Shown here: in pieces, positions 1-64,000 of the stretch | Numbering within the stretch: the first letter of the stretch is position 1 | Layout of the letters: every line of letters starts with the position of its first letter | Assembly: GCA_905178155.1 (NCBI GenBank) | Contig: CAJINV010000010.1 | Span: 791,188-855,187 of the forward strand | Length of the DNA: 64,000 nt | Direction of reading: 5' to 3' | DNA from: Amoebophrya sp. A120 | Taxonomy: Eukaryota > Protista > Dinoflagellata | The notes under the pieces: model-generated | Databases searched by the model: none | The model's input: the letters and a program-made list of their open reading frames with translations, nothing else | Told to the model about the DNA's origin: nothing | Made by a program: the position numbers and the translations under genes

Positions 1-3000
1 ACTCGAGAAAAAACGCCACAAAGTTCATCACGCGGGACTTGGTGTGGTAATTGAGAAACGGATTTTTTCCGGGCGTGTTGTCGTTCTCGTCCAGCCGTTC
101 CATTTCCGGATTGATTTTCATCATCTCCTGTATCTTCGCGTTCTCGGTCTGAATCTCCTGAATCATGAACTGCATCAGCTTCGACACCGGAAAGTGGTCC
201 TCTTCTTCCGCTTTCTGCCCTTGCTCGGTGAAGCTGTCGTGGCAATCCATGAGCTCATATGAACCGCAAATATCCCTGGATGTCTGGGAGATTGCGAGAT
301 TTGTCATGCTAGTCTGGCATGACTCTGAACTCTGTATTGCGTGCCCGCGAACAGTTCATCCTGTCTGTCATGCAAAAAGGCGGCTTCTCATGCGGAGTAC
401 GCAACTCTGAGCCACGGAAAAACTTGTCATGCTGGGGAGCGCATTACACTGTGCTCCCTATTCTCTCCCTTGCATCAGAAGTTTCCAGATCCAGACATAT
501 TTGCGATGCATAGCTCATTCAGCCACTCGCGCGTCGTCGCCAGCGTCGTTGGGTTATGCGTTGCAAACATGTCTGGATCTGGAAGAATGAGAGTTTGTCA
601 TGCTTGTCTCTCATGACTCCTAAGTCTGTGATGCATGAGCAGGATGAGAGTCCCTTGCCTGTCATGCAAGAGCACAGTTTGCCATGCAGAACTCGCAACA
701 CGCAGCAGCTGAAGAACTTGTCATGCTTGGCTGCGTATTGCAGTGTGTCCACTATTCCCAAGCCAGCATCACAAGTTTCCAGACATCCAGACATATTTGA
801 ATTTGATAGGGGTCGAGGGACTCGGCGAGCGTGTTCCCAGAAAACTTCAGCGCCGACCTATCAAAAGGAAAAGTCCCCCTCCACATATCAAACAGAAGTC
901 TCTGCTGCTGGATCTCCGTACACGCATCAGATTTGTCTTGCAGTAGAGGACTGCAGGCATGCGCCAAGCCTGAGCCGAGAGGCTTTGGCGTAGCCTCCTA
1001 GCATGAACAACGTCGATGGTGTAGGCCCAATAGCATCACAAACCGCCCTCATAATGCGGCAGATTCTCTGGGTTTGCCTGCATGCAAGACAGCCAGGATT
1101 TGTGGCCACAAATCTGCATCACAGATTTTCAGAAAAAGGCGCTTTCAATATGGGGAGAGGGGATCTTTCCTCACAATACGACCGGTTGTGCTCTGCGAGC
1201 TCGCCGACCGCGGGCGCGATATCAAATGCAAATATGTCTGGGTCTGGAAGCCTGTGATGCTGGGTGGCGTCTCATGATGAGGCTACAAATGCTGGCTCAG
1301 CATGACAAGTTTCTGAGCTCCTAGGTGTTGCCTATTCTGCATGACAAACTGCGCTTCTGCATCACAGAAAAGCGGAGCTCTTGGGTAACGTGCATGACAG
1401 ATTTAAGAATCATGCCGGACAAGCATGACAAACATGAATTCTTCCAGACCCAGACATTTTTACATTTGATACGCGAGGTCCTGGAACAACACGTCCGTCG
1501 TGACAATGTCCTTCTTCTATCACAATGAAAAACGCCGTCACCCCCGAACTTGGGAGCATTCGTATTGCAAACCTTTCCAACAGAAACACGCGCCCGCTTG
1601 CATCTAGCAGCATCACAGATTTCCAATCGTGAATAGCGAAGATTTGTATTGCAACAGATCCCAGCAAGGGCGGCGCTTGCCATGCAAGCAATGCTATATA
1701 CGCCTAGACTCTGCATCACAAAGATAGATTCATATTCCTTTGATGCATGACAAAAAGTTTTCATTGGGAAACTTCGCATCACAAATTATTGCAACTTTTG
1801 GGGGTGGGGGCATTTTTCATGTTGATATCTTCGTGTTTTGCTTCATACCGCCAAACTGCTTTTTCAGTGGGACCCGCGCCTTGGTCGAAGCTTCCTTTTC
1901 CAGCTGCAGGGTGCGATCCTTGAGGTGCTCACGCATGGAGGTGGACACGCCAAACCCGCCGTGTCTTGGCTTGATAGAACCTGTCGTACATCATCGTGGT
2001 GTATTCTCCGTAACGGCGAGTTGCCTACTGCAGATGGCCCTCCATAATTCATAGTACTATACGACAAGAGGCCTGGTACTAAGTTCTTGCACATAGAAGT
2101 AGTTGTACACAAGTGTAGAAGTGATACGGCCCGTCGATTATCTTGGTGCGCATTAGAAACATGAAAAATTTGGGTACTTTTTTTGTGCTGTGCGCGCATG
2201 GCTTTGTCCTTTTTCAGGTAGTCCGCAAGCAAATCTCGCTTCGTCCCCCCCTCGACTTCGATGATCTCCGCCGGGGAGAGTTTTGTGATCATGTAGTAAA
2301 TCAGGTCGAAGATGACCCAGCGCGCAAACCTATCGCGAAACGTCAAGTCGCTGTGCTTCCGCGTGTTGTTTTCCATCGGAAACTCCTCCCCGGCCCACGT
2401 GTTCAGTAGGGGCATCAACTCCAGTTTCGCGTACATCTTCACGAATTTCAGCTGCAAATACCGCCGGTTGTCCGTGTAGCCGGGATCCCCGGGCTTCGGA
2501 TCGGGGATGGCCACCAAGTTATGCAATGCAAAAGCATCGCACTCGTATGAATTATGCACTACAAATTTCCTCAGCATGAGAAATGAAACCAGCCACCCCC
2601 CGGCGAAGGCCGCCGGGGAGGGGGCTGTTCGGTGGAGGTGTTCCGGTGGGGAAGGTGGCGCCAACATCGAATCGCTGCGCGCCGCTACACAGCCAAAAAA
2701 AAAGAGCCCGGCCCATGTTTCGGCATGGGCGGGCACCATGCCCGGCCTTAGTAGCTGCGCGCCATGGGAAAATGCGCGCAGGAAACTATTTCCGGGCGCC
2801 AACGTTCAAGACGCCACAAGGGTGACGAACCTGCTGCCAGCGTGCGCGGGCGTTGTGGGAAAGAAGTTGCGGCCACCCTAGGTGGCCGACCAGGTTAAGG
2901 CGGGGCGCCGCGCCCCCTCCGGGGGACGCAGAGCGGCGCACGCACTTTGAACGGCCGCTCTGATCCGAAAACGAAAACAGTGCCAGCCGGTCGCTGCGCC

Positions 3001-6000
3001 CTAGCGAGCTTCTTTAGGGGGCGCCACGCGCAGACAAGTGGGCAGGCTGTGCTCCTGGAGGTGGTCTGCGAGAGGGTCCGGGAGAGGGTCCCGGAGAGGG
3101 TCCGGGAGAGGTTCAGAGAGGGTCCAGGAGAGGGTCGGAGAGGGTCCCGGAGAGGGTCCGGGAGAGGGTCGGAGACGTCCCGAGAGGGTCCGCCGAGAGG
3201 TAAAATAGAGGTTCCCGGAGAGGGTCGCGGTAGAGGGTCGCCTAGAGGGTCGCCCTATACTACGCACCCTCTCCGACCCTCTACGCCCTCTTCTCCTACC
3301 CTCTACCTGACCTCTCCCCAACCTCTACCCTACCTCTGCGCGCGTATAGCCGCGCTTTAAGGGGCTCTATACGGCTCACCCTCTCCCGGCCCTCTCCGTT
3401 ACCTCTCGTTTTACCTCTCCCCGACCCTCTCATTTTGGCCGACCCTCTATTCTACCTCTCCGACCGTCTATTTTACCTCTATACAACCTCTACCAAACCT
3501 CTACCGTACCCTCTCCAGCCCCGTTTTCTTCCATATATAAATATAGTAATTTGTACTGCAGATTTACCTTCATAATGCATGCATGACTGCAATCAATACG
3601 AGCACGATTATAGTTTTGCACTTCATACAAGTTGCGGAACAGCAACAAACAGTCCGTGACGATGGGGAAGTCGCGGTTTTTTCCCTCAAGTTGCATGTAG
3701 TGCAGCTTCTTCTTCTTGTCGTTTTCGTTTTCCGCCGTCTGCTCGATTTCGTCCCGCATTTCCTGCTCCTCCGCATCGAAATCCCGCAGCAGGTCTATTG
3801 CAAGGAAAAGTCTCCCCCTGCTCCTCCTATCGCGAAGGGATCCGAAGATTGAAAATTTGCGATACTGACCTGTGGCCACCACACATCGCGTCTGTCTTGC
3901 AAGAGAGCAATGCCACAGCTCCCGCCGCATGATTACGCAGGCAATTTGTGATGCTGCTGCCCCGCCAACAGGGCGCAGACGTCTGTCATGCTCAGCGTCT
4001 ACTACCATCGAACGTCCTCCGCGACCAGGCTTTTCCTCTGCCTGCAGTCCTGTACCGCAAGACACAGCTGCTTGGTGTAAGTACACAAGTCCCGCATCAC
4101 AGATTTCCACTTTGATATGGGGACGAGGGGAGATTTTTCCTAACAATAGGGTCGTGCCCGAACTCCACCCCGTCGCCCACGTTATGAACTGCAAAAGTAT
4201 CGTACTAGTAGTAATTGCAATACAAATTAGCTCAGCATGACAAATGGAATTTGTCATGCTGTTTTACCTTGAGAACGAGATTTGTAATGCATAAATCCAA
4301 TTACTACGAGTACGATACTTTTGCACAGGATACACGTGATTGATCAGCATGTCGCACACCGCGCTCATCCGTTCGGTTTTGCAGAGGTCTTCCTTGATGG
4401 ACTGCAAATTTGCGAGGTGATTCCGCACGTACTCGTCGCCGGTGTTCCACTCGTGTTGGTACTCGAGGGTCCGCGCCACATTTTCGAATCCGCGCTTCAC
4501 AATCGGGTCGGTCAACAGCACCATGATGCGCAGAATCCTCTTGGCAATGTATTGTGAAGAAAAATCCCCCCTCCCCATACCAAAGCGAGTACTTCAGAAA
4601 ATTTGTGATGCTGATTTGAGGCCACCAATCGTCTCTGTATTGCCAGAAGGCAAGTCCAAATGCCTGGCCGCGTTCTGCCGGCAATTTGTAATGCTGTATG
4701 GCCTACGGAGGATCTCCTGCCTTGCTAAGTGCCTCCGCAAAAACGCCCCTACTCCGGCCTTGTATCTGTTTGCAGTCCTCTACTGCAAGACAAATCCGAT
4801 TTGTGTACACAAATCCCGCATCACAGATTTCCATCTCGATATGGGGAGGGGGGATTTTTCCTTTTGATACAATGGCCACGTCGTGGTTGTATTTGGTTTC
4901 CAAAATCGGCGCCAGGTTATCAAATGCAAAAATGTCTGGGTCTGGAAGATTGCGAGATTTGTCATGCTTGTCTGACATGACCAAAAAGTTTGTGACGCGT
5001 GTCCAAGAAGAGACCCTTTTGCCTGTCATGCAAAAGCGCAGTTTGTCATGCGAAACACGCAACACAAAGAAGCGCAGATATTTCTCATGCTTGGCTGTGC
5101 ATTACAGACCATTCACTATTCCCAACGCAGCATTACAAACTTCCAGACCCAGACATATTTGCAGTTGATACAGGTGGTCCGGAACCAATTTTAGGTCGCC
5201 TTTAGAATTTATTTTTCAGGATGTTATTCCATTTCGTATAAGTAACCCTAGTAGATATGGTTTCATGGAAATAAGGAAAGAGGTGCAAGGACGCCGGCGC
5301 AACAAGAGATTAAGTACATCCATTTTAATATTGTAGTGCACCTCCATGATCATGATAAAGATACTTGTTGTAGTGAAGAAATTTCAGGATCATGATGCGG
5401 AAAACCAAAAAGGAATCATGAGTCTATCGCAATAAAGCTACATATCAATCCCATGATCTGCCTTCGCTTCTGCAGCGGGTAGCGCAGGATAATGTCGCGC
5501 AGCTTGTTGTCCTAAGTAAAAACGCTCCCATAGTCAAGATGTTGGGGAATGTAGTGCTACACAAATCCACAAGTTCTGGCTGTCGAGCATGACAGGTTCT
5601 GTGGGCTCGTAATGTAGTGGTCCTGTTAGTTTAGCTAGTGCAACTGCATGACAACTCGACTACTGTATCCTGATTCTAGCGCGACATACTCCCAGATAGC
5701 AATAGAAAATGGCTCTCAGGGGGCTGCGCATGACAAAACATTTTACACTTGCGGGATTTGCATGACAACTATGACAACTCTGGGGCGGGGACGTTTTTGC
5801 TTAGGGTATTTGTCCAGCGCCTTCGCGCAGGGTTCGAAGGTGTAGATGTACTGCTATCGAGTGCCAATATCGATCTGGGTCTGGGAAGTTGGAACTCGTA
5901 ATGCTGGTCTTCCTTGCACTCCGGTGAAATCAGTACTTATTGCATGACCGACAAGTCACGCCACATCATGCCATACAAAAATGCAGTTTCTCATGCGCAA

Positions 6001-7313
6001 TGCGTATGGAAATAAGTATTGAAGTGCTCTGCAAAGAACTTGTCGTGCTTCACTGCCTTCGAAAGATGTCGTTGTGTTCTCCTCAACATGAACATCCACC
6101 GACGTTCAACTACAATTATAAACTTGTGATGCTGTTACAGCATCACAACTTCATAATTCCAGACGCAGATCGATATTTGCATTGAATAAGTGCGAGCTGC
6201 CGTCGATTTCGTGCCACCCGCCGAGCTATGCACTGCAAAAGTATCGCACTCGTAGTGATCGCAGTCATGCATTACAAATCTAGTAATCAAGGTAAATCCG
6301 CATTACAAATTACATTTGTAATGCTGAGCCAATTTGTAATGCAGTTTATACTAGTACGATACTTTTGCAGTTCATACGAGCGCCTGCATAATCTCGGAAA
6401 GTTCCTTTTCCAGCTTATCCTGAGGAAAAACGTCCCCACCCAATAGCCAAGTTGGTAAGTCTGCAACACAAATCCCTTCGCTTTGGGAGTTATGCATGAC
6501 AAGCTTGCTCCGTCTGTAGTGTATTGCTGTTTAACAAGGACAGCCGCATCACAAAGACGCCTGCTCATCCTGTTTACAGCGTTACAAATTATGTCAGACA
6601 GAACAGGACTACAAATGCGATGCCTCTCGTAGAGATGTGCATTTCTGTGGCTGCGAATCTGCATGACAACTATGGGGTGGGGACGTTTTCACATAGGATA
6701 CAGCTGGCGCAGCATGTCCGGGCCGGGGTTGGGTGGCACATACCGGTATCAATGCAAAAGTGTCTGGGTCTGGAAACTTGTGACGCTGGGTAGCGTATCG
6801 TGAGGAGGCCACAAGTGCTGGCGCAGCATGACAAGTTTCTGAGCTTCTAGGTGTTGCCTATTCTGCATGACAAACTGCGTTTCTGCATGACAGAAAAATG
6901 GCGCTCTTGGGTAACGTGCATGACAGATTTGAGAGTCATGCCAGACAAGGATGACAAACATGCACTCTTCCAGACCCTGACATTTTTACATTTGATAACC
7001 GCAGCCCGGTGTCCGGGTTGGTGACCTCATCCAGAGCGTCGGTGAACGATTTCGTGTCAAACTCCTTCTATCCTGTGCAAAAGTGCCGCGCTAGTAGTAA
7101 AAATCGCATGACATCAAATTTTCTCAAAACAAGATGATGAAATGGAATTTGTAATGCGGATTTGTCTACTTCAGGGGAGTAGAGATTTGTAATGCATGAC
7201 TGGCACAGGTTTGTACGTAGTACGAATGCTTTTGCACAGCATACATTCAGCGTCGCCCACGGGTTCTGCCACGTCTCCAGCCGTAGCGTCGACTGCACGG
7301 CGGCGGCCGACAT
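1..7313 (-). CDS. TIMELESS: Timeless/Tof1/Swi1 family fork-protection protein; multi-exon, runs off the window start
   Basis: Removing 16 introners (+1 TSD copy each) and 2 inferred GT-AG introns gives one frame from ATG 7313: MSAAAVQ...EIMQALGGW...EPCAKALDKLRDII...HLAPIL...LRIMVLLTDP...NLQSIKEDL...CLLLFRNLVAIPDP...RHGGFG. These match Timeless N-terminal motifs (ALG, DLLPIL, IRLMVNLTQP, LQAYKEAF, LLLVRNIL, RHSRFG). Confidence 0.85.
258..512. mobile_element. Introner family A
   Basis: TIRs; TSD GCTCA. Confidence 0.85.
555..808. mobile_element. Introner family A
   Basis: TSD TGGGT/GGGGT. Confidence 0.85.
859..1178. mobile_element. Introner family B (GGAAAAATCCCCCTCCCCATA TIR)
   Basis: TSD CGACC. 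Confidence 0.9.
1220..1471. mobile_element. Introner family A (TATCAAATGCAAAAATGTCTGGGTCTGGAA TIR)
   Basis: TSD CGCGA. Confidence 0.9.
1518..1827. mobile_element. Introner family E (TATCACAATGAAAAA TIR)
   Basis: TSD TCTTC. Confidence 0.9.
2589..3549 (-). mobile_element. Non-autonomous Helitron nested in an introner
   Basis: Minus strand starts TTACTATATTTATATA and ends in a GC hairpin + CTGG (CTRR). Inserted between A and T with no TSD. Removal restores the family-D consensus GAGAAATGAAA|TTTGTA. Confidence 0.8.
3071..3515. repeat. 12-bp tandem repeat (CCGGAGAGGGTC) followed by inverted degenerate copies, inside the Helitron
   Basis: GAGAGGGTC units at 3071-3250; ACCCTCTC units at 3265-3515. 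Confidence 0.8.
3796..4148. mobile_element. Introner family B
   Basis: TSD AGGTC/GGGTC. Confidence 0.85.
4183..4332. mobile_element. Introner family D (TGCAAAAGTATCGTACTCGTA TIR)
   Basis: TSD CACGT. Confidence 0.9.
4550..4869. mobile_element. Introner family B
   Basis: TSD CAATG. Confidence 0.9.
4918..5170. mobile_element. Introner family A
   Basis: TSD CAGGT. Confidence 0.9.
5508..5808. mobile_element. Introner family C (aged)
   Basis: TSD CTTGT/TTTGT. Confidence 0.8.
5855..6188. mobile_element. Introner family A (aged)
   Basis: TSD ACTGC/AGTGC. Confidence 0.8.
6227..6376. mobile_element. Introner family D
   Basis: TSD CGAGC. Confidence 0.9.
6416..6700. mobile_element. Introner family C (TATCCTGAGTAAAAACGTCCCCACCCC TIR)
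   Basis: TSD CAGCT. Confidence 0.9.
6747..6997. mobile_element. Introner family A
   Basis: TSD ACCGG/ACCGC. Confidence 0.88.
7069..7243. mobile_element. Introner family D
   Basis: TSD CCTTC/CATTC. Confidence 0.82.
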
Positions 7314-7957
7314 TTGCCCCGGCTGTGTGCGTCCTGCCCAGAGGACGACGCCCGGCTGTGTGTGAAACCGCCGGGGCACGCAAAGCTACATGTTTTGAAC
7401 TGTATCAAAAAATCCAAAAAGGTTCAATAAAGCAGGTTAGAATTATTAGGTCGGTTCAAATAATGATTGCGGTTTTTAAAAAAATCCCTATGAGCTGTAA
7501 AAAGTCCTGAGTCGTCGCTCCGCGTCGTCCCAAGCAGACTGACTTAAACCCGCTGCGCCAGCTAAACTCACAACTATACCTGAACTGAAGGTGAATCTGC
7601 TAAAATGTGCTCGTAGCTTCTACTTATTTCCCTCGGTCGCGATGAAAAAGTTGCAAATTGCGCGACGAGTAGGAACTACTAGTACCCTTTGCGACCACGT
7701 AGCAGCGAGGTTGATGCACCTCCGCAGGCTTTGGTTCTACTTGTCCGAAAGTGGACGAGGAAACCTAATAAATTAATACTGCTTATCCAGCACCGCAAAT
7801 TGATATGCGGATGCACAGCAAGCTTATTTCAACATTTGCACGACAGCCGACGACGACAAGTTGTCTACTTCATCATCCTTTTTATGCTATCCGCGCAGCA
7901 TTTTTTGCTTAGTTACAATCTTGTTCCGCACGACAGGTTGATTTCAAGCAGCACAGT

Positions 7958-25624: not shown

Positions 25625-25776
25625 GTAGAAGATGAATCGACCCTCAGTTGTACCAGTTTTATATGATCCTCGGTGGAACGAATACTATTTTTTGCAAGAA
25701 GTACAACAACTTGCAATTCTCCTGGTCATCTGAATGCTACATCATGCTCCAGTTGTCTTCATGCTTCGGACGTATT

Positions 25777-45610: not shown

Positions 45611-45710
45611 GCCAGTTTGAAAGAAGGCGTGCCAGTTTGAAAGAAGGCGTGCCAGTTCGAATCGGACGTTGTATCAGAAATCCAAAAAAGCGTGCCAGTT
45701 TGAAAGAAGG
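45611..45710 (+). repeat. 20-bp direct repeats GCCAGTTTGAAAGAAGGCGT
   Basis: Two and a half tandem copies from 45611, plus one near 45694. Confidence 0.7.
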
Positions 45711-49500: not shown

Positions 49501-50132
49501 GAAGCGACAGGCCCGGCTGGAAAGGTACTGCCTACTTTAAGTAGCGCCAATAGCATGACAGATTTATTTCCAAACAGGAGCTGCGTAGTACTGCACTCTG
49601 CAACTACACAGCTTGGGTAGTAGTATCTAGCGCGGGCGGTCGCCGTTTTCAGGATGAGAAGCGAGGTTTTACACTGTGGTTTTGTTCCTTATATGTCGTT
49701 CCAAGTAGAACACCGAAATATTTCTATTTGTTCCACGACTTTATGAACGCAGATTCGGGTCCAGCGCCATGACGGACGCACAAAAGGCGGAGGCTCGCAT
49801 ATTACAATGAAAAATGCCCCCACCCCCGAACTTGGGAGCATTTATTGTATTGCAAACCTTTCCAAATGAAATATTCGCCCTCTTGCATCTATCAGCATCA
49901 CAGGTTTTCAGTCGTGAATAGCAAAAATTTGTATTGCAAAAGACCCCAGCAAGAGCGGCACTTGTCATGCAAGCGATGCGATACACGCCTACACTCTGCA
50001 TCAGAAATATTCATACTCCTTTCATGCATGGCAAAAAGTTTTCATTTGGAAACTTCGCATCACAAATTTTTGCAATTTAGGGGTGGGGGGCACTTTTCAC
50101 TGTAATATCGCAAAGCCCGGTTTGGCACCTAA
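46555..50132 (+). CDS. SARNP: SAP-domain ribonucleoprotein, Tho1/SARNP(CIP29)/MOS11-like mRNA export factor
   Basis: N-terminal SAP domain (KVVELKALAKERGLAETGKKADLIARL) plus repeated KARAERFG motifs. Open across 8 introners and 3 inferred GT-AG introns to TAA 50130-50132. Confidence 0.85.
46655..46922. mobile_element. Introner family A
   Basis: TSD CCGAC. Confidence 0.9.
47011..47297. mobile_element. Introner family C
   Basis: TSD CCGCG. Confidence 0.9.
47644..47896. mobile_element. Introner family A
   Basis: TSD AAGCT. Confidence 0.85.
47992..48278. mobile_element. Strongly degenerate introner (C-like)
   Basis: TATC...CATA ends, TSD GAAGA/CACGA; removal restores frame. Confidence 0.6.
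48307..48561. mobile_element. Introner family I
   Basis: TSD GAAGG. Confidence 0.9.
48625..48891. mobile_element. Introner family A
   Basis: TSD AAAGC. Confidence 0.9.
49141..49450. mobile_element. Introner family G
   Basis: TSD ACAAA/ATGAA. Confidence 0.85.
49800..50107. mobile_element. Introner family E
   Basis: TSD TCGCA. Confidence 0.9.
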
Positions 50133-51552: not shown

Positions 51553-54500
51553 CACGAAGAGGGCCACACCTCCAGGGCGGAAAATTATCAAGGTTTTCGT
51601 AGGACCTCGAGTGACCGCGGTGTACTACTGTTTATCGCGGCCGCCGCACGACCAGGAGCGTGTCGTTTTGTTTTGGGAAGATATGCATTGCAAAAGTATC
51701 GTACTCGTATAAATGCATTACAAATTTCCTCAGCATGAGAAATAAAATTTGTAATGCAGAAGTACCTTAAGAAAAAAATTTGTAATGCATGATTGCGAGG
51801 CGAGGCGATGGGTTACCCGGTCGGCAGAGCCGATCCACACGAACGAGCGAATGATTGCGATTACTACGAGTACGATACTTTTGCACAGGATAGAAGAAAC
51901 CGCACAAGGACCATCATGCTCGACCTCAGCGTGTGCAGTTTGAACCCAATTTTGGAGCTGCACGGGCAGGAGATCAACCATCTGGCGTTCGGCACCAACA
52001 AGGAGTACAATTTGGAGGTGACGGTGGTTTCGCTGCTCGATAAGCAAAACACCCCCATTGCGGTGGTCCAGGACTGCAGTTTATCCAAGAAAAAAACAGT
52101 GTAAGTGTACTTTCTTGGAGGATTAGCATGACAAATATCTCTCGCATGACAGCAAAAACCTGTCATGCGCAGATACTACGTGAAAACGCCCTTTAATGAA
52201 CCCTACGACGCACGCCAAGCATGACAGACGCAATCAGCTTGAATGTTGCGCATCACAAATTTACTCCCGCAGAGGGAGCGAAAGAGCACGGCCCGAGCAA
52301 TTGAAACTGTCTTGATTTGCATGAAAGGGGCCCGAAAATGAAACGCTCAGCGCTCCCCGGAATCGATTCAAATAAAACGCGAACGCCTGCCGGGGCGGTT
52401 GGCAAAAGAAAGACAGGGAAGCGACCAGAGGCCGGCGCCTTGGGGACGGCGACGGCCCTCCCGGCGCCTGCGCTCCCAGGGCGTGACAAATAGCAGGCAA
52501 GGCGGCCGCCGCAGCCGGCTCTGTCTTCCTTGTGCCCGTGCCGCGGCCGCTGCGTAGTTGTGTCGGTTGCCCTGAGTTTCATTTCGTGCCGCCCTGCGAG
52601 AATTTGCGTGGCTCTGGGCGAGCGGGCCGGACGCCCGTGGTACGTAGGGGGCGCCGAGTCTCCGCGTCCTTGCTTGGTCGCTGCGCCTTTGCCGCGGTTG
52701 GCGCGCTGCTCTGACGAGTTGCATGCTGCGCCGCCCCGCGGGAATTCGTCTGGCCCTGGGCGAGCGGGCCGGGCGCCAGTGGTAGGGGGCGCCGAGTCAG
52801 TCTCCGTGCCCTGGTCTGGCCGCCCTGTCGTTGCGGTGGTTGGTTCGTGCCTCTGAGTTGCATGTCGCGCCGCCCCGCGGGAATTTGCCTGGCCATAGGC
52901 GAGCGGGCCGGGCGCCAGTGGTAGACTAGAGGGCGCCGAGTTTCCGTGCCCTCGCTCGCCTGGCCTTTGCGTCTTTTAGCTGGGTGGTTCGTATGTAGTG
53001 AGGTCGCCGCACGGCTCTAGCCAGCCAGGGAGTTTTTTTGCCATATACCGTGAAAAACGGGCGGCAGTTTTCAATCGGCCGGCGGTGTTTTTGAACATAA
53101 AAAGCTTTCACTTGTCAATCGGCTCTGGCTGACCTGGCACCGAATCGCCAGCGGGTTCTATCGGTCGCCGATCTAAAAAACGACGCAGAGGAGTCAGCAA
53201 AAGGGGCGCCATTCTGAGGCGCCTGGCGCACCTAATTCCGCCGATTTGGGGCGCCCTAAAAGGGGCGCCGAAAAAGTGCGAAGGCGGCAAAAGCTTCGAA
53301 TCCGCATGCTTTGCGCGCCATTTTTGGCCACTTTTCGAGGTCGCAAAGACGGCCAAAAAAATCGGGCATCTGTAATGTGGGGAGCAATCCAAGGCGCGCG
53401 ACTTTTCAGCAAAAAAAAACAAAAAGCGGAAAGCTCGCCAAAATCTTAAAGCCAATCAAACAATCCGCATGCCATTGGCCCGATTTGGGCGGGGCGCCCA
53501 GGGGGCCGGGCTTGGTGGGGGCCCTTGGGTGGCTATAGCACTGGGCAGCGCATCACAAGGCGATCCTTGGCAAATACCCACGCGCTCGGTTTCGTCGTGA
53601 TCTCGTGCTGTGTGGGTTTGTCGCTTTCGAAATTTTTCCCGACAAGTATTTTGCTGATATTTCAACAACCGAGCGGCATAGCTTCAACGCTTTAGCTGCG
53701 CAGCGACGGTTAGAGCGACGACTGAAACGCAAGCCATTGAACGAGAAACAGCAGCAAGCTTACGATCGTGTCAGCGATATGGTTGGACGGTTAGCAGCGT
53801 ACAAACTACAAAATAGCGCGACGCATGGCGCGAATGTTGAGGCGGCTGCGACGTCTCCGCCGCTGATTTTCCCGCCGCAACACATTCAGGGACGACGGGG
53901 CACAGGCAAGACGCACCTCGGAAGATGTTTGCGAGACATGGCCACGGGCGCTGGCTTGCGGGGTGTGTGCTGCGCTCCCAGTGGCGCTGCTGCGCGATTA
54001 TATGGCCTCGATGCCCATACCATTCACGCGCTCAACAACATGGCACCGACACGAACTAAACTACAGCCGGATGGTTTAGCGTTTGAAGATATTGCGACCC
54101 CTACGGCCGAAAACGATGCATATTTGCGCTCGTTGGATTTTGCATTGTGTGACGAAATTCATTCGGCGCAGGCGGCGTGGATCTTCGAACTTGACGCGGC
54201 GTTGCGGCGTGCGCGAAGCAATCCCGCGCCATTTGGTGGCGTCATTTTTGTGGGGATTGGCGATCGGCGTCAGCAGCTTCCCGCATTAAACACGGCGGGT
54301 TTTTACGGATCACGCTCGCCAGTCGCTCGCGCGGATTTGCTAGCCCATTCAGTGCATGCCGTTTCGTTTTTGAAGAAGCCCGTCGCAGAACTGCACCAGT
54401 TGGGCAAATTGGAGCGAAAAAACGCGAACACCGAGCAAAGTTGGGCCGATTTCGTCGAAACCTTGGCAACGGAATCGCAAGACATTGACTTGCACAGGTT

Positions 54501-57500
54501 TGCGCACGTTAACAAAATAACAGCAGCAGAGCGCGTCGCTTTGTCACCACGCGCGCAAATTTTAGCCGCTACGCATCACCAATGCCGTCGCTGGAATAAA
54601 CTCGCTCTCGAAACGCATCGCGCATTCAACCCCAGAGCTAAAGCAGTGACATATCGCGCAGAAGGGCGCTGCGAGTATGCTCCCTGTGGGAGTATCTGCG
54701 AAACAGTCCCCGGAGACGATTGCCCGCCTATCGACTTGGAGCTCGTCGAAGGGTCTCGCGTGGAATTCTGTCGGCGTTATGGGTCCGTCGTGAAGCACAC
54801 GAAAGGCGTCGTGCGCTATTTAGGGCGTGACTTTGTGTCGCTCGAAGTTGAAACCGAAGGCGAGGCCGACACACTTGACGCGGAGCCATATACCAGCATG
54901 CTGCTTGTGCCGCGTCTGCCTATTCAAGTGGTCGACGCTTACGGGGAAGAGCATCGGTATTTGCAATGTCCCTTGCGGCTAGCTTATTGCAAAACGTTCC
55001 ACGCCGTTCAAGGCGTCACAGTATCAGGCGAGTCGTTGCTTGGCTCAGATGTCGACGCGTTTACGCATGGGACGGGTTATGTGGTGTTCGGGCGAGTTGA
55101 AGACGAGTCGCAAATTAAAACGGTTTCGCTCAATGATGAGAGGCCGGAAAAGCTGACCAACATAGTGTGGCCGGAATTTCTCGCGTGAGCGCATCCCGAC
55201 CCGTCTGATCCATACACCGAAAAACACACGGCAACGCTTCAAACGTCGCACCTTACGCGCTTGCTCGCTGCTCCTTTCTGCGCGATTGTGTTCCGGGATG
55301 CTTCGTCAGTCCACTGTTCTATTTTGTTGCTCAGCCGACGACCTTGACAATTTGAAAAACCGCGCGCCATTGCTAATTTTCCAGTCCGCTTGTCGTGGTC
55401 GCAGCATTGTTTTGAGGTTTTTGATCTGATTTGTGCACCGTTTTGCGCGTTTTGCTGAGAACCGCCCGGCTTCGGTGCCATTTTGTACCGTTTCGCAAAC
55501 TGATGGCGCAACTTGCGCGCATTTTGATCCATTTGCACCAATATGAGGCAAGTTTGCGCGTTTTCGTGCTTTTTGCATAGCTTTCGCGGTCATTTTGCTG
55601 CTTTTGTTATTGAATTAAGCCAAAGCAGTGCCATTTTCGCCGTTTGCAATGCTACTGGCTGCATTTGTTGCGTTTTTGACTCGTTTGCAATTGAACTAAG
55701 CCAAAACAGTGCCGCTTTTGCCCGTTTGCAATGCTACTGGTTATATTTGTTGCGTTTTTGACTAATTTGCAAATGAACTAAGCCAAAACAGTGCCACTTT
55801 TGCCGGTTTGCAATGCTACTGGCTACATTTGTTGCGTTTTTGACTAGTTTGCAGCGTTTTCGATGTCATTTTGCACGATTTCGCATGCTATTGACCTAAT
55901 TTGCGCGCATTTTGTCCCGTTTGCTTTACAAAAACGCAGGCCCGAGCCGCAACAATTTGCGAAATCTCGGCGAATATTCGCGGACTTTTTTGCCGTCGCA
56001 TTTTCCTCGATTTGGACCGTTTTTCGTGGCTTTTGCCATCGTTTTGACGTTTTTGCATCGATTTTTGCACCATTTTGCACGTTTTGCATCGAGAAAAATT
56101 CAGCGATTTTCGGTTCGTGTCTTGCATGTTTCGTAACATAATTTATAACACTAACAGCGTTTTTTTCTTGGATACAGTTCGGGATCGAAAAACATCTTTC
56201 CGCTGTCCCGGGCCATATCAACTTTAAAAATGTCTGGGTCTGGAAATTTGTGATGCTAAAAGTGAACGAGAGTTCCACTGCAATACGGAGCCAAGCATGA
56301 CAAATTTTTTGGGCTCCTATGTGTTGCGTGTGCCGCATGGCAAACTGCGTGCTTGCATGACAGAAAAGAGGACCGCTTCGTGCCCATGCATCACAGATTC
56401 TTGAGTCATGTCAGACACGCATGACAAATGTAGGAATCTTCCAGACCCAGACAGTTTTACATTTGATAGGCCATCCGGCACAACCACTGGTCTTCCTCCG
56501 CGCAGGGTCATGGGGGCAACCACTACGGAGCCAATCCTGGCGAAATTGACTACAATGACGCCATCATTCGCAGCACGATTTGGTCCCGGGTCATGGGCAC
56601 GTCGTCAAACAACCGAAGCTATGCATTGCAAAAGTATCGTACTCGTATAAATGCATCACAAATTATTTCCTCAGCGTGAGAAATAAAATTTGGAATGCGC
56701 ATTTAGCTTAAGAACAAGATTTGTATAATGCATGACTGCAAGTACAACTAGTACGATCCTTGTGCACAGGATAGAAGCAACAGCAGGCGCGGTTCGAACG
56801 CTGGGACCACGTCGAATCAGCAGTCATCCCGGAGCAGGAGTCTGTCGCCGGCGCGGTTCATTTTCGGTCGAGGTGCTTCCTCCGCGAGCTCGTCGGTCCG
56901 GGCGACAACAAAAGGTGGGAAAAACAAGACGGCGATATTGTGAGGAAAAATCCCCCCTCCCCGTATTGAAAAACTACGTTTGCGAAAATTTGTGTTGCTG
57001 ATTTGTGGCCACAAATCACAACTGTCTTGCAAGAAGCCAAATGCAGAAGCTTCCGCCCCATTCTGGAAGCGATTTGTCATGCTGGTGGGTCTAAAAGGCA
57101 GCCGCTTGCAATGCTGAACAACTAGACCCAGACGCCTCTGCCTAGGCTCGGCATCTGGCCGCAATGCCTCCCTGCAATACAAACCGGATTTGTGTACACA
57201 GATCCAGCATCAGTGCTGCTGCGCTAGCAGTTGCTCTTCGAGATGGAAGCTGCGCTGGACGAAGTCGAGGTGGAGCAGCATTGACGGAACTGGGCAGCGC
57301 GCGGCCTTCGCACCAGGAGCGGATGCCGATTACTCAGCTTTCTTCCCGGGGGCTCCGGGGCTGACCCATTTGTGTCGGTGCGCGGACCAACCCATCTGCG
57401 TTGATAGCGGCACCCCATCCGCGGCGTTCTGTGTCTCCCGTGCGCCGGGTCCTTTGCAGCGTGCGTTGCCTTCTTGCTCGGCTCGGCCTGTTTTTGGTGT

Positions 57501-60500
57501 CGCGTCGGTGGGTGCGCGTCAAGCTGAGGGGAGTGGAGCGAGATGCGCGTTTTGTGCTTGGGGCTTGTTCGACGGGATTCTTTTTGCGCCGAGGAGTTCT
57601 AGCTCGTGACATGCCGCGTGGTCCCGCGGACTCTGTTTTGTGCCTGCTCGTGCTCGGAGATGACGTTGCTGTAGCCGCTGGAGATCGCGGCTTTCCATGA
57701 TTTCCTACGATGCCGCTGGTCCTACAAGAGCCCTTTCGCCTTCATCCCAGTGCTGTCGTTGACAGACCTTGGGCTGATAATCCCGTTGCAGGAGGTTCGG
57801 TCCTTGGCGCGTCTTCGCCACCGGCAGGAGTCAGGATGGGTAGGTGGGTCTCCTCGTTGTTGCTTGAGCTTGCTCAGGTCTTCGCTGCATTCGGTGGCTG
57901 GTGGCCGCTCTTGGGTCTCAGGTGTGGGTCGGAGTTCGTTTGCCTCTCGTCAGTCTGGACGGAGTGCTCTCGTTCAGCCACCCCCCGGCGGTCGACTGTC
58001 GGCGATCTGGCCCCCCCAGCTCATGATTGCAGTGTTGGCTGGTGATGACGAGGTTGCGGACAGTTGACTTGTCATCTGTCTGGTTCGCCCATTTTGCTGC
58101 CACGACTGTTTGGTCCCCGGTCCCCTGAGGCGGGGGGATACGGGTTACCTGGTCGGGATGTCGCGCGGAAGGTGTCTCTCACGTCCCTAGCTCTTCGTAC
58201 TCGCCGCTGAGTACAGTCGAGCGCCTTGGTTGATCGCCACACTGTTTCATAGTGCTGAAACGACCCGGCTTTCACTAGGGGGAGCATTCGTACACTTTGT
58301 GCCCTCCGGGACTATGCCTCTGCTTCCGTCTAAACTGAGGGGTCCACTTATCCCTCTCGGTATTCGGTCGCAGGGAAGGGTTGCCGGGGTCTCCCTCGCA
58401 TCGGTTCTCGATGTCGGGTGTGAGTTTGTGACTGCGGGGGCAGTGGTTGGCTTAGGTTTGCGGAGTACATCTGAAAAGAGGCTCCCATTCCTTCTTCCAG
58501 GTAGCGATCCTAGATCGCTGCCACGCGGAGCCACCCCCGTATTTCACCCCCAGGGGGTTGTGGACCTGGCAAAACCGATGAGTTCGGGCTGCTGACTGTT
58601 CCACCTCTTCCGAGTGCGATCATGTTACGCCTCACGCCTCACAAATCCAGCATCAGAAATTCCGTTTTGATATGGGGAGGGGGATTTTTCATTTTGATAG
58701 GCGACGCCTGCAGTCCTTTCCAGGGCGGGCGGTGGGGATGATGGTAGATTTGCGCAAATAAATGCTAGCGCAGCAGCATCTTCTTCTTCGCAGCAGCAAC
58801 AGCAGACGACAGCACAGTATGCCGAAGTGGAGCAGCAGATTACCGCGCTGGCGTTGACGCCGGACTGTTTGTATTGCATCATCGTCTACTTGGATGGGTT
58901 CGTGGACGTCGTCCGAGTGCTGGAGGACTTCGGCGCAGCGACGAGTGCCACAAGTATCCTGTGCAAAAGTTTCGTACTCGTAGTAATCGCAGTCATGCAT
59001 TACAGATCTCCCTCTTAACCTACAGGTACAGCCGCATTACAAATTCAATTTTTCATGCTGATGGAATTTGTCATGCGATTTATACTAGTACGTGTACGAT
59101 GCTTTTGCATTGCATAACAAGCAGTGGGGGCCAAGTTACAAGGGATCAACATCAGCAGGAACAAGGAGCAGAACAGCACCTAAGCGAGCCGATCCTGCCG
59201 TTCTTCCTGAACGACGTGTTTCAATCGAGCTACTGCGACGACTTTGGCCCGCCCAGCTGCTGCTGCTGTTACGATGTGAATAGAAACAAAACTACCGGAA
59301 GAAGAACTTCTACGGCGCCGAACAACGGCGCTTTTCACAGTGCTGCCACCTCCAAGTGGAGGTCAAGCGGGCAACTACAGGTGGGAGGAAGTTCGTATCC
59401 TAATGGCTGCTCTGCAAACAGTAACAAGTCCGCGCCGGCTCTTTATTCCAACGGGTCGCAAACCTACACGACCGTTGCAGAAGGTGGAGGTCTCAGCGCC
59501 TCAGCGGCTAGTAGTACTCAAAAAATGGATTCTTCCGGCTCCTTCACCCACCCTGGGGAGAACAGCTGCAAGAAGGCCGAGCCACTGTATCGCGTTTTCA
59601 TCGGGTCGCTGTCCGGAAATTTGGTGGCCATCGACCTGATACGCATTGCAAAAGCATCGCACTAGTAGAAATCGCATTACAAGTTCGGTGAGCATGACAA
59701 ATGGAATTTGTCATGATGAAAAATGGAATTTGTCATGCTGTTTTACCTTGGGATGGAAATTTGTAATGCATGATTGCGATTTACACTACGAGTGCGATAC
59801 TTTTGCACTGGATACCTGAAATCCAGTTCGGTTATGGAGAAATTTACGAATTTTCCCGGCCCCGTATCCTGAGTAAAAACGTCCCCGCCCCATAGTCAAG
59901 GTGCTTTAAATTTGGTCTTTTCCAGTACATAAACACCCCATAGTCAAGGTGGGAACTTTGCATCACGAATCCAGAAGCTTTGGGAGTTACGCATGACAAT
60001 TTGTAGGCTCTAGCGTAGTTCTGTTTAGCAAGCGAAGCCGCATAGGAAATCCATCTCCTCATCCTGTTTACAGCATTATAAGTTCGTCCAGAACACAATT
60101 GGAAATGGCTCTCATGGGGATCCGGCGCATTACAAATGCTCATGTAGTTGCAAGGCTGCATGATTATATGGGAGGGGAACGTTTTTACAAAGTATATCCC
60201 GTACTGAACATGCAGCTCGTGGAGGAGAACTCCGCAAACCAGCAGATTACGGACCTGATGAACTTGCAGAAGATCTGGCTGTATCTTGTGCAAAAGTAAC
60301 GTACTCGTATTGCAGTCATGCATTACAAATCTTTTCCTTAAAGTCAACTCGCATTACAAATTTTATTTCTCATGCTGAGAAAATTTGTAATGCATTTTTT
60401 TATACGAGTGCGATACTCTTGCAGTTAATTGGCTGTTCCTCAAAGTTGGCGAATCTCTGCTCCGTCTCGATGTGTTCGAGGAGTGCGAGGACGTGAGCGC

Positions 60501-63500
60501 GGCGGCGACCGCGGCGCCGCTGGGTTCCACTACAGGGTCCGAACAACTGGACATATGCATTGATGCAGCTATGTCTTGGTCTGGAAAGTTGTCATGCTAT
60601 CTTGCCGAAGATAACAGAGGCTGAGGCACGTCAATGTGTAGCTAGGCATGTTGACAAGTTTTCTAACGGCCGTCTGTTGGAGACATAGCGCTTCTGCAAC
60701 ACACAGGAGCAGCGTTGCTGCGCGCCATGCATCACAGCTCGCCAACTCCGCGGGGGCGTTGCGGGTATCTCCCTAAAACACCAAAACCGGCACAAATTGG
60801 GCCGGCAGTCCGGGCAATTGCTCACCAGCCGGCTTGTATGGCGAATAAGGTGCTCGACGAAGGAAGAAGCAGGCATGCAGTTAGCACCTCCGGTTGGTAG
60901 AGCGATCGGCTACCGAGGCACGTCAGGGGGCGTCGCTACTTCAATTCAATTCAATTCAATTGCTAGCGATGTGATGTGATGTGATGGAGCGGCGGCGGTG
61001 GCCTCTTACCATCAAGCTCGAACGGCCGGGGCAGGGAACAACGCAATGCTTTGCACCACGGGCAGACGACTACTATCTGGCAGTGTGGACGCCTCCGGAC
61101 AGCAGCAACTGCCCAACATGCAAACACTAAGTTATCAGCTTCTTACCCTACGGACCTGCTAGACTTCTCCTCTAACCCACTGGGGCGCTTATGTAGCTCG
61201 GCGGGCCTGGGTGCAGCGCATAAAAACTCCTGCTGCCTAAGCTACTTTTTTGCCCAAGTTCATATGGAACTTCATCTTTTTTCCGTGCTTTGAGCTTTTT
61301 CTTCAGAACTTCGCGCTTTTTGCTTTTAGTTTCTACTGTACTTTTTGAAAACAAAAAAAACAAGGGTCACTGAACTACGCACCTTTTTCCTTACTAGTAT
61401 ACTACACGAAACTACCTCCCCGCGAAGCGCTACTTGCCGAGCCTGGTTACTGCACCTGATCCGCACAGATGTCTCTACAAATGCAAAACCTAACCTATGG
61501 AAGGGCGATGCGCGGAATACTAACTACACGAACGGGCAATAACTAAGGAGGGCCACGGCACTACTATACACAGTTTTCTAGTGCACGACCGGCACACCCG
61601 CGAACCTCCGCCCGACGCCACGACCACCGGCACAACGGCAGCGTGAGGGATGGACTATTTTAAGCCTTTTTTTTGGCATAGAGAAAAACATCCCTTTTCC
61701 TTCTTCGCAGTGCGTTTACGGAGCTAACTACTCGCCCGGCGCAACGGGTGGCGCTACAAAAAACTACCTGCTAACACTGCGCGTTTATTCCTAAGACTAC
61801 TTGTGCTGTGTGCTTTATTTGTCGCTTTTAATTCTACTTCTAGCGACTAGCTTTGCGTGGTGCTCCCTGCAGCTGCAGCAGCTTCTGCAACTAAAACCGC
61901 GACCGCTACTGTCCAGCACCACGGCAACGCTCGGAGGCCGGCAGTGCCCATCCGTCGCCGTTCCATCGCTTGCACCGTCCCAACACAGTCATGTAGTATA
62001 CCTGATATTAATGATTGTGTAGCACGATGACAGGACAGTTGACCGACAGCGAATATATCTGCAAACTAGTCAAACACTGCAAAATATATGTAGTTCAAGA
62101 TGGAGACGAAGAAGACATTTATGCACAACGCAAACAATGAATAGGTAAAGAAAGTTTATCCATACTCCACTTTAACCACACGCACATACAAACCCCCGAC
62201 GACAAACAAGCTGTGCACGGCCACGGTCTGTGGAAGCTTTTCGAACAGAGACTCCTTGCCACGAGTGCCCGTTCCGCCGCTCGCTGAAAAAACACCACGG
62301 CGCGCTACAACTCCTTCTGCGGTCAGCTTGCTCCGGGCACGGTCCGTCGTCGAAGATCCTCCGGCGGTGCGCGGAGGTCTTGGCGAGGTCGGTATGCGCC
62401 ACAGTGCCTCTGGCGGTGGAGGGAGAAACCCCCACCGGTCGTGTCGTGCTTGCCCTTGTTGCTGCACGGCCTCGCACTAGAAGTTGCCGGAGGTTGGGGC
62501 TTGGCGTAGGTGACGTTCTTCCTCGGGTCACAGAGCTGCACGGTGGTGCCGCGTGGAACCATCTTGGGTGGCGGCGGCGGTGACTGTCACTAGCAGCTTA
62601 AATGAATCTAGGGCGCAGCCGGCTGCACCCGGCTGCCTACAACTACTCTCCAGGGACCCCGTGCAGAGGGCCCCGCTCTCGACAGGTTTCTACTAAGTTA
62701 GGCTCCTTGAGCCAAAAATTAGCCGATCATAACATCCAAGTCTTGCATTCTACTTCCAGACCCAGACACATGCTTGCAGTGGATAGGACAACGCCGCAAA
62801 CAACATTCAAGCGTTACTGACCGCGCCACTAAACGCCGCAGCCGGGGTATGAAAAGGAAAAATCCCCCCTTCCCATATCAAAACAGAAATCTGTGATGTG
62901 GGCTTTGTGTACACAAATCACACCTGTCTTGCAGGAAAGCACTGCACGCAGATCGCAAGCCTAGGGGGGGCCTTTTGGTGTAGGAACCTAGCATGGCAGA
63001 CGTCTGCCCTGTAGGCCCTGCAGCATTACAAACCGCCTGAATAAAAAGTATCGCGGCGGACGCTCTAGATTTGTCTTCTGGCAAGACAGCGCAAATCTGC
63101 ATCACAAATTTCCGGCAGGACATGTTTTCAATATGGGGAGGGGGGGACTTTTCCTTGCAATGCGGGGCGCTAAGCTCGGCGGCGGGTGGCAGTGCGGCGT
63201 CGAGGACCTCCTCCCAAAGCAGACCGAAGAGGATATCCCAAAGAAACAAAGATTGCGGGCAGGTCAGATTTGTAATGCAAAAATGAATAGACAAAACAAT
63301 CTGTCTTGCGTGTCCTAAACAGCATGCTATGGCGTTGCCCATGACAGATTTTTCTGCGTATTTATTTTTGCATTACAAATCTGCCCTGCCGGCTTTTTTC
63401 TGTGTCATAGAGGAAGAAACTGCTTATCGACATTATCAAAACATGCTCAGCTGTTACAATCTCAAAAACGTTAGTACAATTGAGTCTGGAATTTGATTCG

Positions 63501-64000
63501 CATGATGAGCATAATAGATGACCCACAGGGCACTCAACTCTCTGAAATACAAATTTACTCAGAAGATTCTAGTGCGGAGTTTTGGGGCTCCAGAAGTTGT
63601 CATGCGCAATCCTGTGCAGCGAGTAGGCTAGATCATGCACTTTTTCTTGCGTCAGCACGAGTCTGCAGTTTTATGGTAACCAATTGGAGATTTTTGTAGT
63701 AGTTGAGCAGGGTATAGACGTCGCGGACGGACTGAAAAAGCACCGCAGACAGAAAATCAAGAACACGGAGGTGGTCAGCGGAATCCACGCGGGCAGGATG
63801 TTGGTCTGCAGCAGTCCTAGCTTCCCGCTGAAGCCGCTGATGCAAATTCCGCTTTGCAAAGTGCCGTCGGCAAGCTGTAGTACTAGTGCCTCTGGTACAA
63901 CTAGTACAATGCCACTGCAGCTTGAGGGGTCGGCAAGTCTTCTACATCCTGTTGCGTCTCAGGCAGAAGTGCAAAAAGCCATAGTGGCGGAACCACCAGG
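51553..64000 (+). CDS. Large hypothetical protein with WD40/beta-propeller-like segments; runs off the window end
   Basis: One frame stays open across 13 introners, three of them multi-kb: EINHLAFG..., QITALALTPDCLYCIIVYLDGFVDV, VFIGSLSGNLVAIDL. Start uncertain. Confidence 0.65.
51682..51892. mobile_element. Introner family D with 52-bp internal insert
   Basis: TSD GAAGA. Confidence 0.9.
52577..52950 (+). repeat. Three degenerate repeats of about 125-140 bp inside the PIF1 element
   Basis: Recurring GCCGCCCCGCGGGAATT...GGCGAGCGGGCCGG...GGGCGCCGAGT. Confidence 0.75.
53605..55188 (+). CDS. PIF1-family (SF1B) DNA helicase, Helitron-type, intronless
   Basis: GRRGTGKT (Walker A), CAPSGAAA, TIH, LCDEI (Walker B), PFGGVIFVGIGDRRQQLP, QCPLRLAYCKTFHAVQG, HGTGYVVFGRV, C-terminal TNIVWPEFL. 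First ATG at 53779. Confidence 0.92.
   Translation: MLCGFVAFEIFPDKYFADISTTERHSFNALAAQRRLERRLKRKPLNEKQQQAYDRVSDMVGRLAAYKLQNSATHGANVEAAATSPPLIFPPQHIQGRRGTGKTHLGRCLRDMATGAGLRGVCCAPSGAAARLYGLDAHTIHALNNMAPTRTKLQPDGLAFEDIATPTAENDAYLRSLDFALCDEIHSAQAAWIFELDAALRRARSNPAPFGGVIFVGIGDRRQQLPALNTAGFYGSRSPVARADLLAHSVHAVSFLKKPVAELHQLGKLERKNANTEQSWADFVETLATESQDIDLHRFAHVNKITAAERVALSPRAQILAATHHQCRRWNKLALETHRAFNPRAKAVTYRAEGRCEYAPCGSICETVPGDDCPPIDLELVEGSRVEFCRRYGSVVKHTKGVVRYLGRDFVSLEVETEGEADTLDAEPYTSMLLVPRLPIQVVDAYGEEHRYLQCPLRLAYCKTFHAVQGVTVSGESLLGSDVDAFTHGTGYVVFGRVEDESQIKTVSLNDERPEKLTNIVWPEFLA
55608..55850 (+). repeat. 81-bp tandem repeat x3 inside the PIF1 element
   Basis: TGAA(T/C)TAAGCCAAA at 55611, 55692 and 55773. 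Confidence 0.9.
56216..56468. mobile_element. Introner family A
   Basis: TSD GGCCA. Confidence 0.9.
56620..56773. mobile_element. Introner family D
   Basis: TSD GAAGC. Confidence 0.9.
56936..58699. mobile_element. Introner family B expanded to 1.76 kb
   Basis: TSD GGCGA. Confidence 0.9.
57214..58639. mobile_element. 1.4-kb insert with 17-bp TSD (possible retroposed sequence) nested in an introner
   Basis: Flanked by CACAGATCCAGCATCAG (57197-57213) and CACAAATCCAGCATCAG (58640-58656). No TIR and no recognisable domain. Confidence 0.65.
58955..59116. mobile_element. Introner family D
   Basis: TSD ACAAG. Confidence 0.9.
59640..59814. mobile_element. Introner family D
   Basis: TSD CCTGA. Confidence 0.9.
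59865..60196. mobile_element. Introner family C
   Basis: TSD CCCCG/TCCCG. Confidence 0.85.
60282..60430. mobile_element. Introner family D
   Basis: TSD GGCTG. Confidence 0.85.
60554..62785. mobile_element. Introner family A expanded to 2.2 kb
   Basis: TSD GGACA; removal restores frame. Confidence 0.82.
60740..62725 (-). mobile_element. About 2-kb insert with spliced-leader relic (possible retrocopy) nested in an introner
   Basis: Expands a family-A introner to 2.2 kb. Minus-strand TTTTGGCTCAAG at 62706-62717 lies next to the boundary. Ends approximate. Confidence 0.5.
62848..63162. mobile_element. Introner family B
   Basis: TSD CGGGG. Confidence 0.88.
63234..63409. mobile_element. Introner family F
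   Basis: TSD GAGGA. Confidence 0.9.
63434..63716. mobile_element. Introner family I (aged)
   Basis: TSD GACAT/GACGT. Confidence 0.78.

Follow-up and report, generated by a model that had tools for sequence, protein, structure and literature searches.

Introner Elements of Amoebophrya sp. A120 Are Missing from Spliced RNA and Are Likely to Be Cut in One Register

Inverted-repeat Elements and Their Host Genes

The stretch analysed here, a window of 64,000 nucleotides from contig CAJINV010000010.1 of the dinoflagellate Amoebophrya sp. A120, carries genes that are interrupted by elements with TAT...ATA inverted repeats and flanking 5-bp duplications (Table I). These are non-coding inverted-repeat copies of the introner elements of strain A120, and spliced RNA lacks both the elements and as many bases as make up one duplication. 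A strict scan for TAT...ATA ends with an exact 5-bp duplication gave 65 candidates, of which the 44 with a clear inverted repeat formed a seed set; three shuffled controls gave 29, 20, and 13 candidates, and in none of these did the inverted-repeat score reach 10. When the ends were relaxed and the leftovers inspected, 79 complete elements were found, spanning 258–63716, in agreement with the figure of about 80 given in a preliminary description of this DNA. The 5-bp duplication is exact in 56 of them, and the two copies are mismatched in 23. A total of 27,361 bases is covered by 75 of the elements. Features of a miniature inverted-repeat transposable element are present, namely short length, absence of coding sequence, terminal inverted repeats, a target duplication of fixed length, and high copy number. 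The insertion targets are arbitrary 5-mers, either element orientation occurs, and orientation relative to transcription is mixed in three families (12 versus 14, 8 versus 5, and 5 versus 6). The terminal hairpin is predicted to be strong (z scores of −7.4 and −5.0), and an Rfam search of the window gave no match.

The elements lie in genes of both strands, in all codon phases (23, 11, and 16 of 50 plus-strand junctions in phases 0, 1, and 2) and at dense spacing (150 nt or less for 44 of 78 spacings), as had been proposed. When each element is deleted together with 5 nt, a stop-free frame of 1122 residues is obtained across 17 elements in the EngB gene, in which the GTPase motifs are restored. 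Stop-free frames of 826, 600, and 551 residues are obtained across 5, 7, and 6 elements, respectively, and a frame of 694 residues across 13 elements, including those of 4.1, 1.8, and 2.2 kb. The Timeless frame of 598 residues appears when two GT-AG introns are taken out as well. Deletion of the element with 0, 4, or 6 nt does not yield these frames. Pfam searches on single exons support MMR_HSR1, SAP, BMT5-like, and methyltransferase assignments, but TIMELESS is supported weakly (E = 0.076). An Atlas search for the BMT5-like gene only echoed that name (score 0.86), and no annotated relative was found for the gene at 51553–63998, which holds long elements. An exon of EngB is 100% identical to the Amoebophrya sp. 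A120 protein CAD7961193.1, whose gene model coincides with our reconstruction at 15 of the 17 EngB junctions. The reconstructed frames contain 19 mismatched duplications, and in 10 of them the choice of copy leaves the protein unchanged, which suggests purifying selection on the spliced product.

Other public contigs were scanned with the end motif, which gave 146 loci; all of the 80 loci listed share one assembly prefix. The 313 elements there were called without use of the duplication, and 242 have an exact 5-bp repeat, with a 4-bp and a 6-bp repeat in one element each. The same elements adjoin RNA polymerase largest-subunit and SNF2-type open reading frames (ORFs) in other public contigs (L058:1-1092 and its neighbours). 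Two viral-contig matches to the end motif were rejected as chance, as they lie inside an ORF and belong to no element. Over the elements, the summed depth of run X1 reaches about 100,000, against 21–33 on unique contigs, a ratio that is not a copy number. The published terminal motif of A120 introners (TAT, seven looser bases, then at least three A) is found at the element termini with a position matrix. The class was thus rightly said to be known from Amoebophrya; the strain is the published one, A120, and not a look-alike. Because both the elements and their non-canonical splicing have already been published for A120, the finding as first written is not new.

Absence of the Elements from RNA

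Runs X3–X6 are RNA by the guess of a tool, and the sequence holders listed carry no RNA record; a depth of 0.07 for X4 over the intergenic positions 27504–28170 supports its RNA status. Joints were counted among those listed for positions 19500–39499 and 500–7300. All 13 listed element joints from RNA skip the element plus 5 nt, 12 of them in one X4 contig and one at 31006, and the lengths were checked. The X4 contig runs for 2077 nt through Timeless. A further joint in the second interval, 519→2525 with four letters between, stems from a repeat contig. One X4 contig covers the methyltransferase gene at 33150–36439, and its spacing of 516 equals the 516 predicted for six removals of element plus 5 nt. 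At 31006, the bin has a depth of 293 over 667 bases, 369 of them exonic, which corresponds to about 530 per exonic base as compared with 534 in the next bin and leaves little room for retention of the element. No spliced Timeless contig is present among the rows listed for X3, coverage in X9 and X11 is near nil, and X10 covers one gene only. The X10 transcript reads start at 30009, inside the 600-codon frame, and have a poly(A) end at 32477; an extra A at 31944, lacking in X1 and X4, is present in 477 of 504 X10 reads.

The precise removal of an element with one duplication copy, previously deduced from restored motifs, is therefore borne out by the RNA joints and by the restored frames with the EngB GTPase motifs. 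Four sites had been singled out as having no GT/GC...AG boundary (38842, 30256, 39104, and 17924), and none has one in any register that gives the same mRNA. RNA supports removal at 30256 (36 reads), 38842 and 39104 have no joint among those listed, and at 17924 the public model is 6 bases longer.

One explanation would make the joints artefacts of template switching by reverse transcriptase, in genes that are broken or use other sites. All RNA data used here are cDNA, and a hairpin with a short direct repeat is a known substrate of this artefact (PMC13149111; PMC2923612). From the direction of copying, the enzyme should keep the 3′ copy of the duplication, whereas mismatched bases 1 and 4 stem from the 5′ copy. 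Removal is also near-complete at 31006, 12 listed elements are gone from one contig, frames of 551–1122 residues are restored, and EngB would acquire a stop codon if the 3′ copy at 19982 were kept. We consider an artefact the least probable of the explanations weighed here.

Removal could also take place in the DNA, with element-free gene copies transcribed after programmed excision, as for the internal eliminated sequences (IESs) of ciliates. The transposon anatomy is what such a process would require, X1 contigs drop rare variants, and X1 is one sample of unstated life stage. Nevertheless X1, a DNA-like run with coverage of intergenic DNA, yields contigs that cross element ends without differences (20732–23065, 31242–33666, and 35588–38545), and its depth at the joint 31000→31271 is 0 in this sample, so that the element-free DNA of a ciliate-type IES is not seen. 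The bases that are kept follow the direction of the gene: on the plus strand, at most one base of the left copy is kept at 5855 and at least four at 20513. Raw RNA reads of X9 at 24660–24746 carry the 3′ part of an element flanked on both sides by another locus (185 and 71 reads), which is RNA that keeps part of an element. Dinoflagellates are not known to have a separate germline nucleus, and excision would therefore be inherited. The earlier proposal had left the choice between non-standard RNA splicing and IES-like excision; the former is favoured, and the latter is very improbable, as X1 keeps the elements and the register follows gene direction.

Register of the Cut

Within an exact duplication the cut cannot be placed, and only the 23 elements with mismatched copies can bound k, the number of duplication bases that the message takes from the 5′ copy. 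Six sites are bounded by RNA, the five given in Table I and the element at 35472 (k ≥ 1). Three more are bounded by the public model: the decayed element at 18673, 19982 (k ≥ 3), and 25376 (k ≥ 4). The nine sites span both strands and at least four families, and k = 4 is the sole value that fits all nine bounds; the remaining 14 mismatch sites receive no bound from RNA or the public model. A single register for all sites is therefore likely, in which the intron has the form N-TAT...ATA-NNNN and takes in one base ahead of the element and four behind it. The idea that the junction is set by geometry holds as far as position relative to the element ends is concerned. The "stem + 5 nt" first suggested probably has to give way to 1 nt before and 4 nt after in the direction of the transcript, and a one-sided geometry that keeps the whole 5′ copy is excluded by three RNA sites. 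No paper in the literature searched fixes the splice register of A120 or bounds a cut by mismatched copies; Figures S19–S25 of Farhat et al. 2021, available as legends, may bear on this.

In the original description of the A120 introners, the register of RNA splicing was drawn as shifting inside the duplication by site or family. This is unlikely, since the nine informative sites, from both strands and no fewer than four families, overlap at one k: with k uniform from 0 to 5 at each site, the probability of such bounds is 0.054 for the RNA sites and about 0.005 for all nine (about 0.005–0.05 overall). Registers would appear variable because an exact duplication gives aligners no means of placing the cut within it.

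An RNA polymerase that slips from one duplication copy to the other would likewise skip a hairpin. The substrate is suitable, a strong hairpin flanked by direct repeats, and bases 1–4 do stem from the 5′ copy. From the direction of copying, slippage would keep all five bases of the first copy, yet at three RNA sites base 5 belongs to the second, and the frame is kept at sites with 2–3 mismatches in 5. It is accordingly rated as improbable as excision from DNA.

Table I. Positions of genes, introns, and elements in the window
Feature	Position	Strand	Remarks
TAT...ATA elements (79) with 5-bp flanking duplications	258..63716	.	9 multi-copy families and 8 singletons; mostly 145–353 bp
Timeless gene, 5′ part	2..7385	−	16 elements and 2 GT-AG introns; Pfam weak, E = 0.076
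Canonical GT-AG intron in Timeless	1981..2177	−	Absent from the 2077-nt RNA-type contig
Canonical GT-AG intron in Timeless	5200..5441	−	Absent from the 2077-nt RNA-type contig
EngB/YihA-like GTPase gene	17884..25621	+	17 elements
Methyltransferase gene	33150..36439	+	6 elements; Pfam
BMT5-like methyltransferase gene	37626..41443	+	5 elements, including sites 38842 and 39104
SAP-domain (SARNP-like) gene	46429..50130	+	8 elements; 3 likely GT-AG introns, identified by eye
Element ACCCC/ACCCA (gene sense)	555..808	−	RNA joint 550→810; base 5 from 3′ copy, k ≤ 4
Element GACCC/GACCT	3796..4148	−	RNA joint 3791→4150; k ≤ 4
Element ACAAA/ACAAG	5508..5808	−	RNA joint 5503→5810; k ≤ 4
Element GCACT/GCAGT	5855..6188	−	RNA joint 5849→6189; base 4 from 5′ copy, k ≥ 4
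Element TGTTG/TGTGG	20513..20785	+	RNA contig piece resumes at 20790, k ≥ 4; X1 contigs difference-free over both copies
Decayed element AGTCG/ATTTA	18673..18980	+	Public model, k = 2–4
Element CTTCC	30256..30535	+	Upstream exon joined to 30536 by 36 raw RNA reads
Element CGGAT	31006..31270	+	439 raw X10 RNA reads and an X4 contig skip 270 nt (265 + 5); no canonical register
Element of 1108 bp, short-family ends around an insert	2520..3627	−	RNA joint skips 1113 nt
Element of 4093 bp, 209-bp family with nested insert of ~3.9 kb	52082..56174	+	Removal with 5 nt would keep the host frame
PIF1-like helicase ORF, 549 codons, in nested insert	53539..55185	+	Best relative is the helicase half of Helitron RepHel
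Element of 1764 bp with nested insert	56936..58699	+	Duplication GGCGA
Element of 2232 bp with nested insert	60554..62785	+	Duplication GGACA

End Signals and the Splicing Machinery

The ends were read in all registers that give the same mRNA. No GT/GC/GA...AG reading exists in any of them for 65 of the 79 elements, and one is present in 14; the earlier description of the ends as non-GT-AG was right. At k = 4, five of the 79 are canonical, and the elements as a class do not have U2-type GT/GC...AG ends; the end dinucleotides are free, with 38 combinations in 79. Position +2 is T in 78 and position +3 is A in all 79. Four of the five canonical introns of the window (two shown by RNA and three read by eye) start with GTA.

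Conservation of the ends was compared in 232 elements, the 79 of the window and 153 of the 313 locus elements with a callable strand; on the window the strand caller was right for 57, wrong for none, and made no call for 22. At the 5′ end, the three positions of TAT show 1/0/10 deviations, whereas the counts for the 3′ end are 6/2/1 (Fisher p = 0.0025). The asymmetry has the same direction on both strands and is gone when the ends are split by plus strand (3/1/5 versus 4/1/6). The 5′ end holds +2 and +3, and an A is kept at −7 in 231 of 232 elements. This A, 7 nt before the 3′ end, is a candidate branch point on the basis of sequence conservation. As U+2, A+3, and the A at −7 are held in the orientation of the transcript, the spliceosome stays in play. 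The statement that splice dinucleotides do not set the junction hence applies to G+1 and AG, and not to these three positions.

We propose that the elements are removed by a relaxed major spliceosome with a fixed ruler from branch to end, a reading to which we give a probability of about 0.55. The cut would fall one base before the left TAT and four bases after the right ATA, presumably in the same register at every site. The 5′ splice site would be N|UA, with U+2 and A+3 supplied by the element's own end; the inner A of the terminal ATA, at position −7, would serve as the branch point, and the 3′ site would be set by distance from it. The major spliceosome would likely no longer need a G at +1 or a terminal AG. 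Since the element ends are inverted repeats, both signals would be available in either orientation. The intron would end in the same four bases as the exon before it, so that the message would be restored at any target. The ruler of 1 nt and 4 nt would work in either orientation and even around inserts of 1–4 kb.

Several observations weigh against this proposal. The asymmetry of the ends emerged post hoc, from 20 deviations, and conservation of TAT could largely reflect the needs of a transposase. There is no branch-site consensus around the A at −7, and other repeat positions show no clear 5′/3′ asymmetry in the 232 elements; beyond the terminal triplet, two nominal p values of 0.03–0.04 among 24 are nothing convincing. 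There is no enrichment of G at +1 (28 of 79 in the window and 40 of 123 at independent loci), and an excess of AG at −2/−1 in the window (15 of 79, p = 0.0007) was dropped, as it was not replicated (12 of 123 independent elements, p = 0.2; antisense 10). The predicted hairpin would bury both proposed signals. As to the register, each site only bounds k, and none settles it at 4 by itself; of the six RNA sites, four derive from a single contig in a run that is RNA by a tool's guess, and the public model need not be independent of the RNA runs. The public model CAD7961193.1 also departs from the reconstruction at 2 of the 17 EngB junctions, being 6 bases longer at 17924 and 3 longer at 24204. 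Formally, the register may also be tied to the orientation of the element.

The same geometry of 1 nt and 4 nt could also be produced at the RNA level by a non-spliceosomal endonuclease and a ligase that read the terminal hairpin, by analogy with the nonconventional introns of euglenids. Free end dinucleotides at k = 4, the strong predicted stems, and the failure of the AG bias to replicate all fit such an enzyme. Of 89 spliceosomal proteins, all except six are retained in A120, as are U2, U4, U5, and U6, which speaks for the relaxed spliceosome; U1 was not found, which also fits an endonuclease and ligase (Farhat et al. 2021, PMC7789003). Similarly built euglenid introns leave as full-length circles without lariats (reviewed in PMC11282704). 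Set against this are the U at +2, the unlike conserved bases at the two ends, and the decayed element at 18673, which has a poor stem and is still out of the public model. Selection on an RNA stem was assessed through G-U as compared with A-C pairs in the sense strand, which show no overall excess (240 versus 217, p = 0.3), with an excess only at positions 17–30 and only in the loci. An interior control leans the same way (508 versus 455, p = 0.09), and the test neither supports nor excludes such selection. We regard an endonuclease and ligase as a possible but clearly less probable route than the relaxed spliceosome.

Long Elements and Nested Inserts

Spread of the elements by a cut-and-paste transposase acting in trans would be consistent with their anatomy. 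No transposase was found among 12 ORFs of long elements or among the 50 scanned of 106 long ORFs at the loci. Farhat et al. 2021 (PMC7789003) report no transposase in A120, and Gozashti et al. 2025 describe a family in A120 that has inverted repeats together with Copia/Gypsy-like ORFs.

The introners act as landing sites for other DNA. In the 3.9-kb insert of the element at 52082–56174, GC-rich and AT-rich tandem repeats flank a PIF1-like helicase ORF, which matches the helicase half of RepHel P0121 with 33% identity (E = 5e-44). No Helitron Rep domain was matched in the window, and the ORF at 53539–55185 is not a fusion of HUH Rep and PIF1; no relative of it was found in metagenome contigs. 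As the mobiliser it is unlikely, being a Rep-less Helitron-like fragment in an ordinary family member with matches of only 24–41%. Its nested position, its likeness to a Helitron, and the lack of a Rep counterpart in the window make a passenger the most likely reading. The elements at 2520–3627, 56936–58699, and 60554–62785 contain inserts of 0.9–2 kb without a Pfam match.

The motif TGTnATGC and its reverse complement recur within all families, and 80 of 88 and 98 of 110 strict matches fall in elements. The motif tends to point inward and may be a protein-binding site. Three truncated or decayed elements without a matching end or duplication lie at 10305–10630, 26943–27138, and 43150–43530, the second of which is intergenic.

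Discussion

To what is published on the elements, the analysis adds a register that is probably the same throughout and a candidate for the branch point, which make the mechanism of removal directly testable. A fixed register names the 5′ cut, the candidate branch point, and the 3′ cut in place of "no clear splicing signature." It would lead to corrected gene models and to a revised count of "canonical" introns, as 14 of 79 elements can be read as canonical by chance, and it would show how far exon ligation goes without a terminal AG. If it is true, tens of thousands of seemingly variable non-canonical introns obey one rule, and each new insertion of such an element is born as a perfect intron. 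A fixed cut would point to a spliceosome that has dropped the usual end signals.

The closest known system is that in the original account of A120 (Farhat et al. 2021, PMC7789003), which describes the same strain, TAT inverted repeats, repeated families, and RNA-backed non-canonical ends. The published direct repeats are 3–5 nt, whereas those in the window are strictly 5 bp, and the splice site is drawn there as variable with an unknown border, whereas the mismatch sites point to one register. Class 12 introners of Polarella glacialis (Roy et al., bioRxiv 10.1101/2020.10.14.339549) also have a 5-nt duplication. On their NNAGG (NNAG|G) targets, the intron consists of the last duplication base and the element's first base onward and ends in the second copy, which is the register found here. 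These elements need a target AG and G, use one orientation, and give GC-AG ends, in contrast to A120, where any target and both orientations are used.

The introns of Giardia lamblia and Trichomonas resemble those studied here in the 5′ site VTATGTT, with a relaxed base before TAT, and in a constant spacing between branch point and 3′ end, as proposed for A120 (PMC6679479). Unlike the A120 introners, they retain AG and a long, fused branch-site consensus, occur in small numbers, and do not consist of transposon copies. Non-canonical introns of Fritillaria borealis share inverted repeats and target duplications and are reported to be excised by the spliceosome, but they prefer AG-AC or AG-AT ends, whereas both ends are arbitrary target bases in A120 (reviewed in PMC11282704). 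The nonconventional introns of euglenids, covered by the same review, have a terminal stem, such as is predicted for the A120 elements, and share with these duplication-like repeats, non-canonical ends, and a wide length range. Their junction consensus of pyrimidine|purine with a CAG/CTG stem sets them apart from the A120 introners, in which no base bias is seen at the junction.

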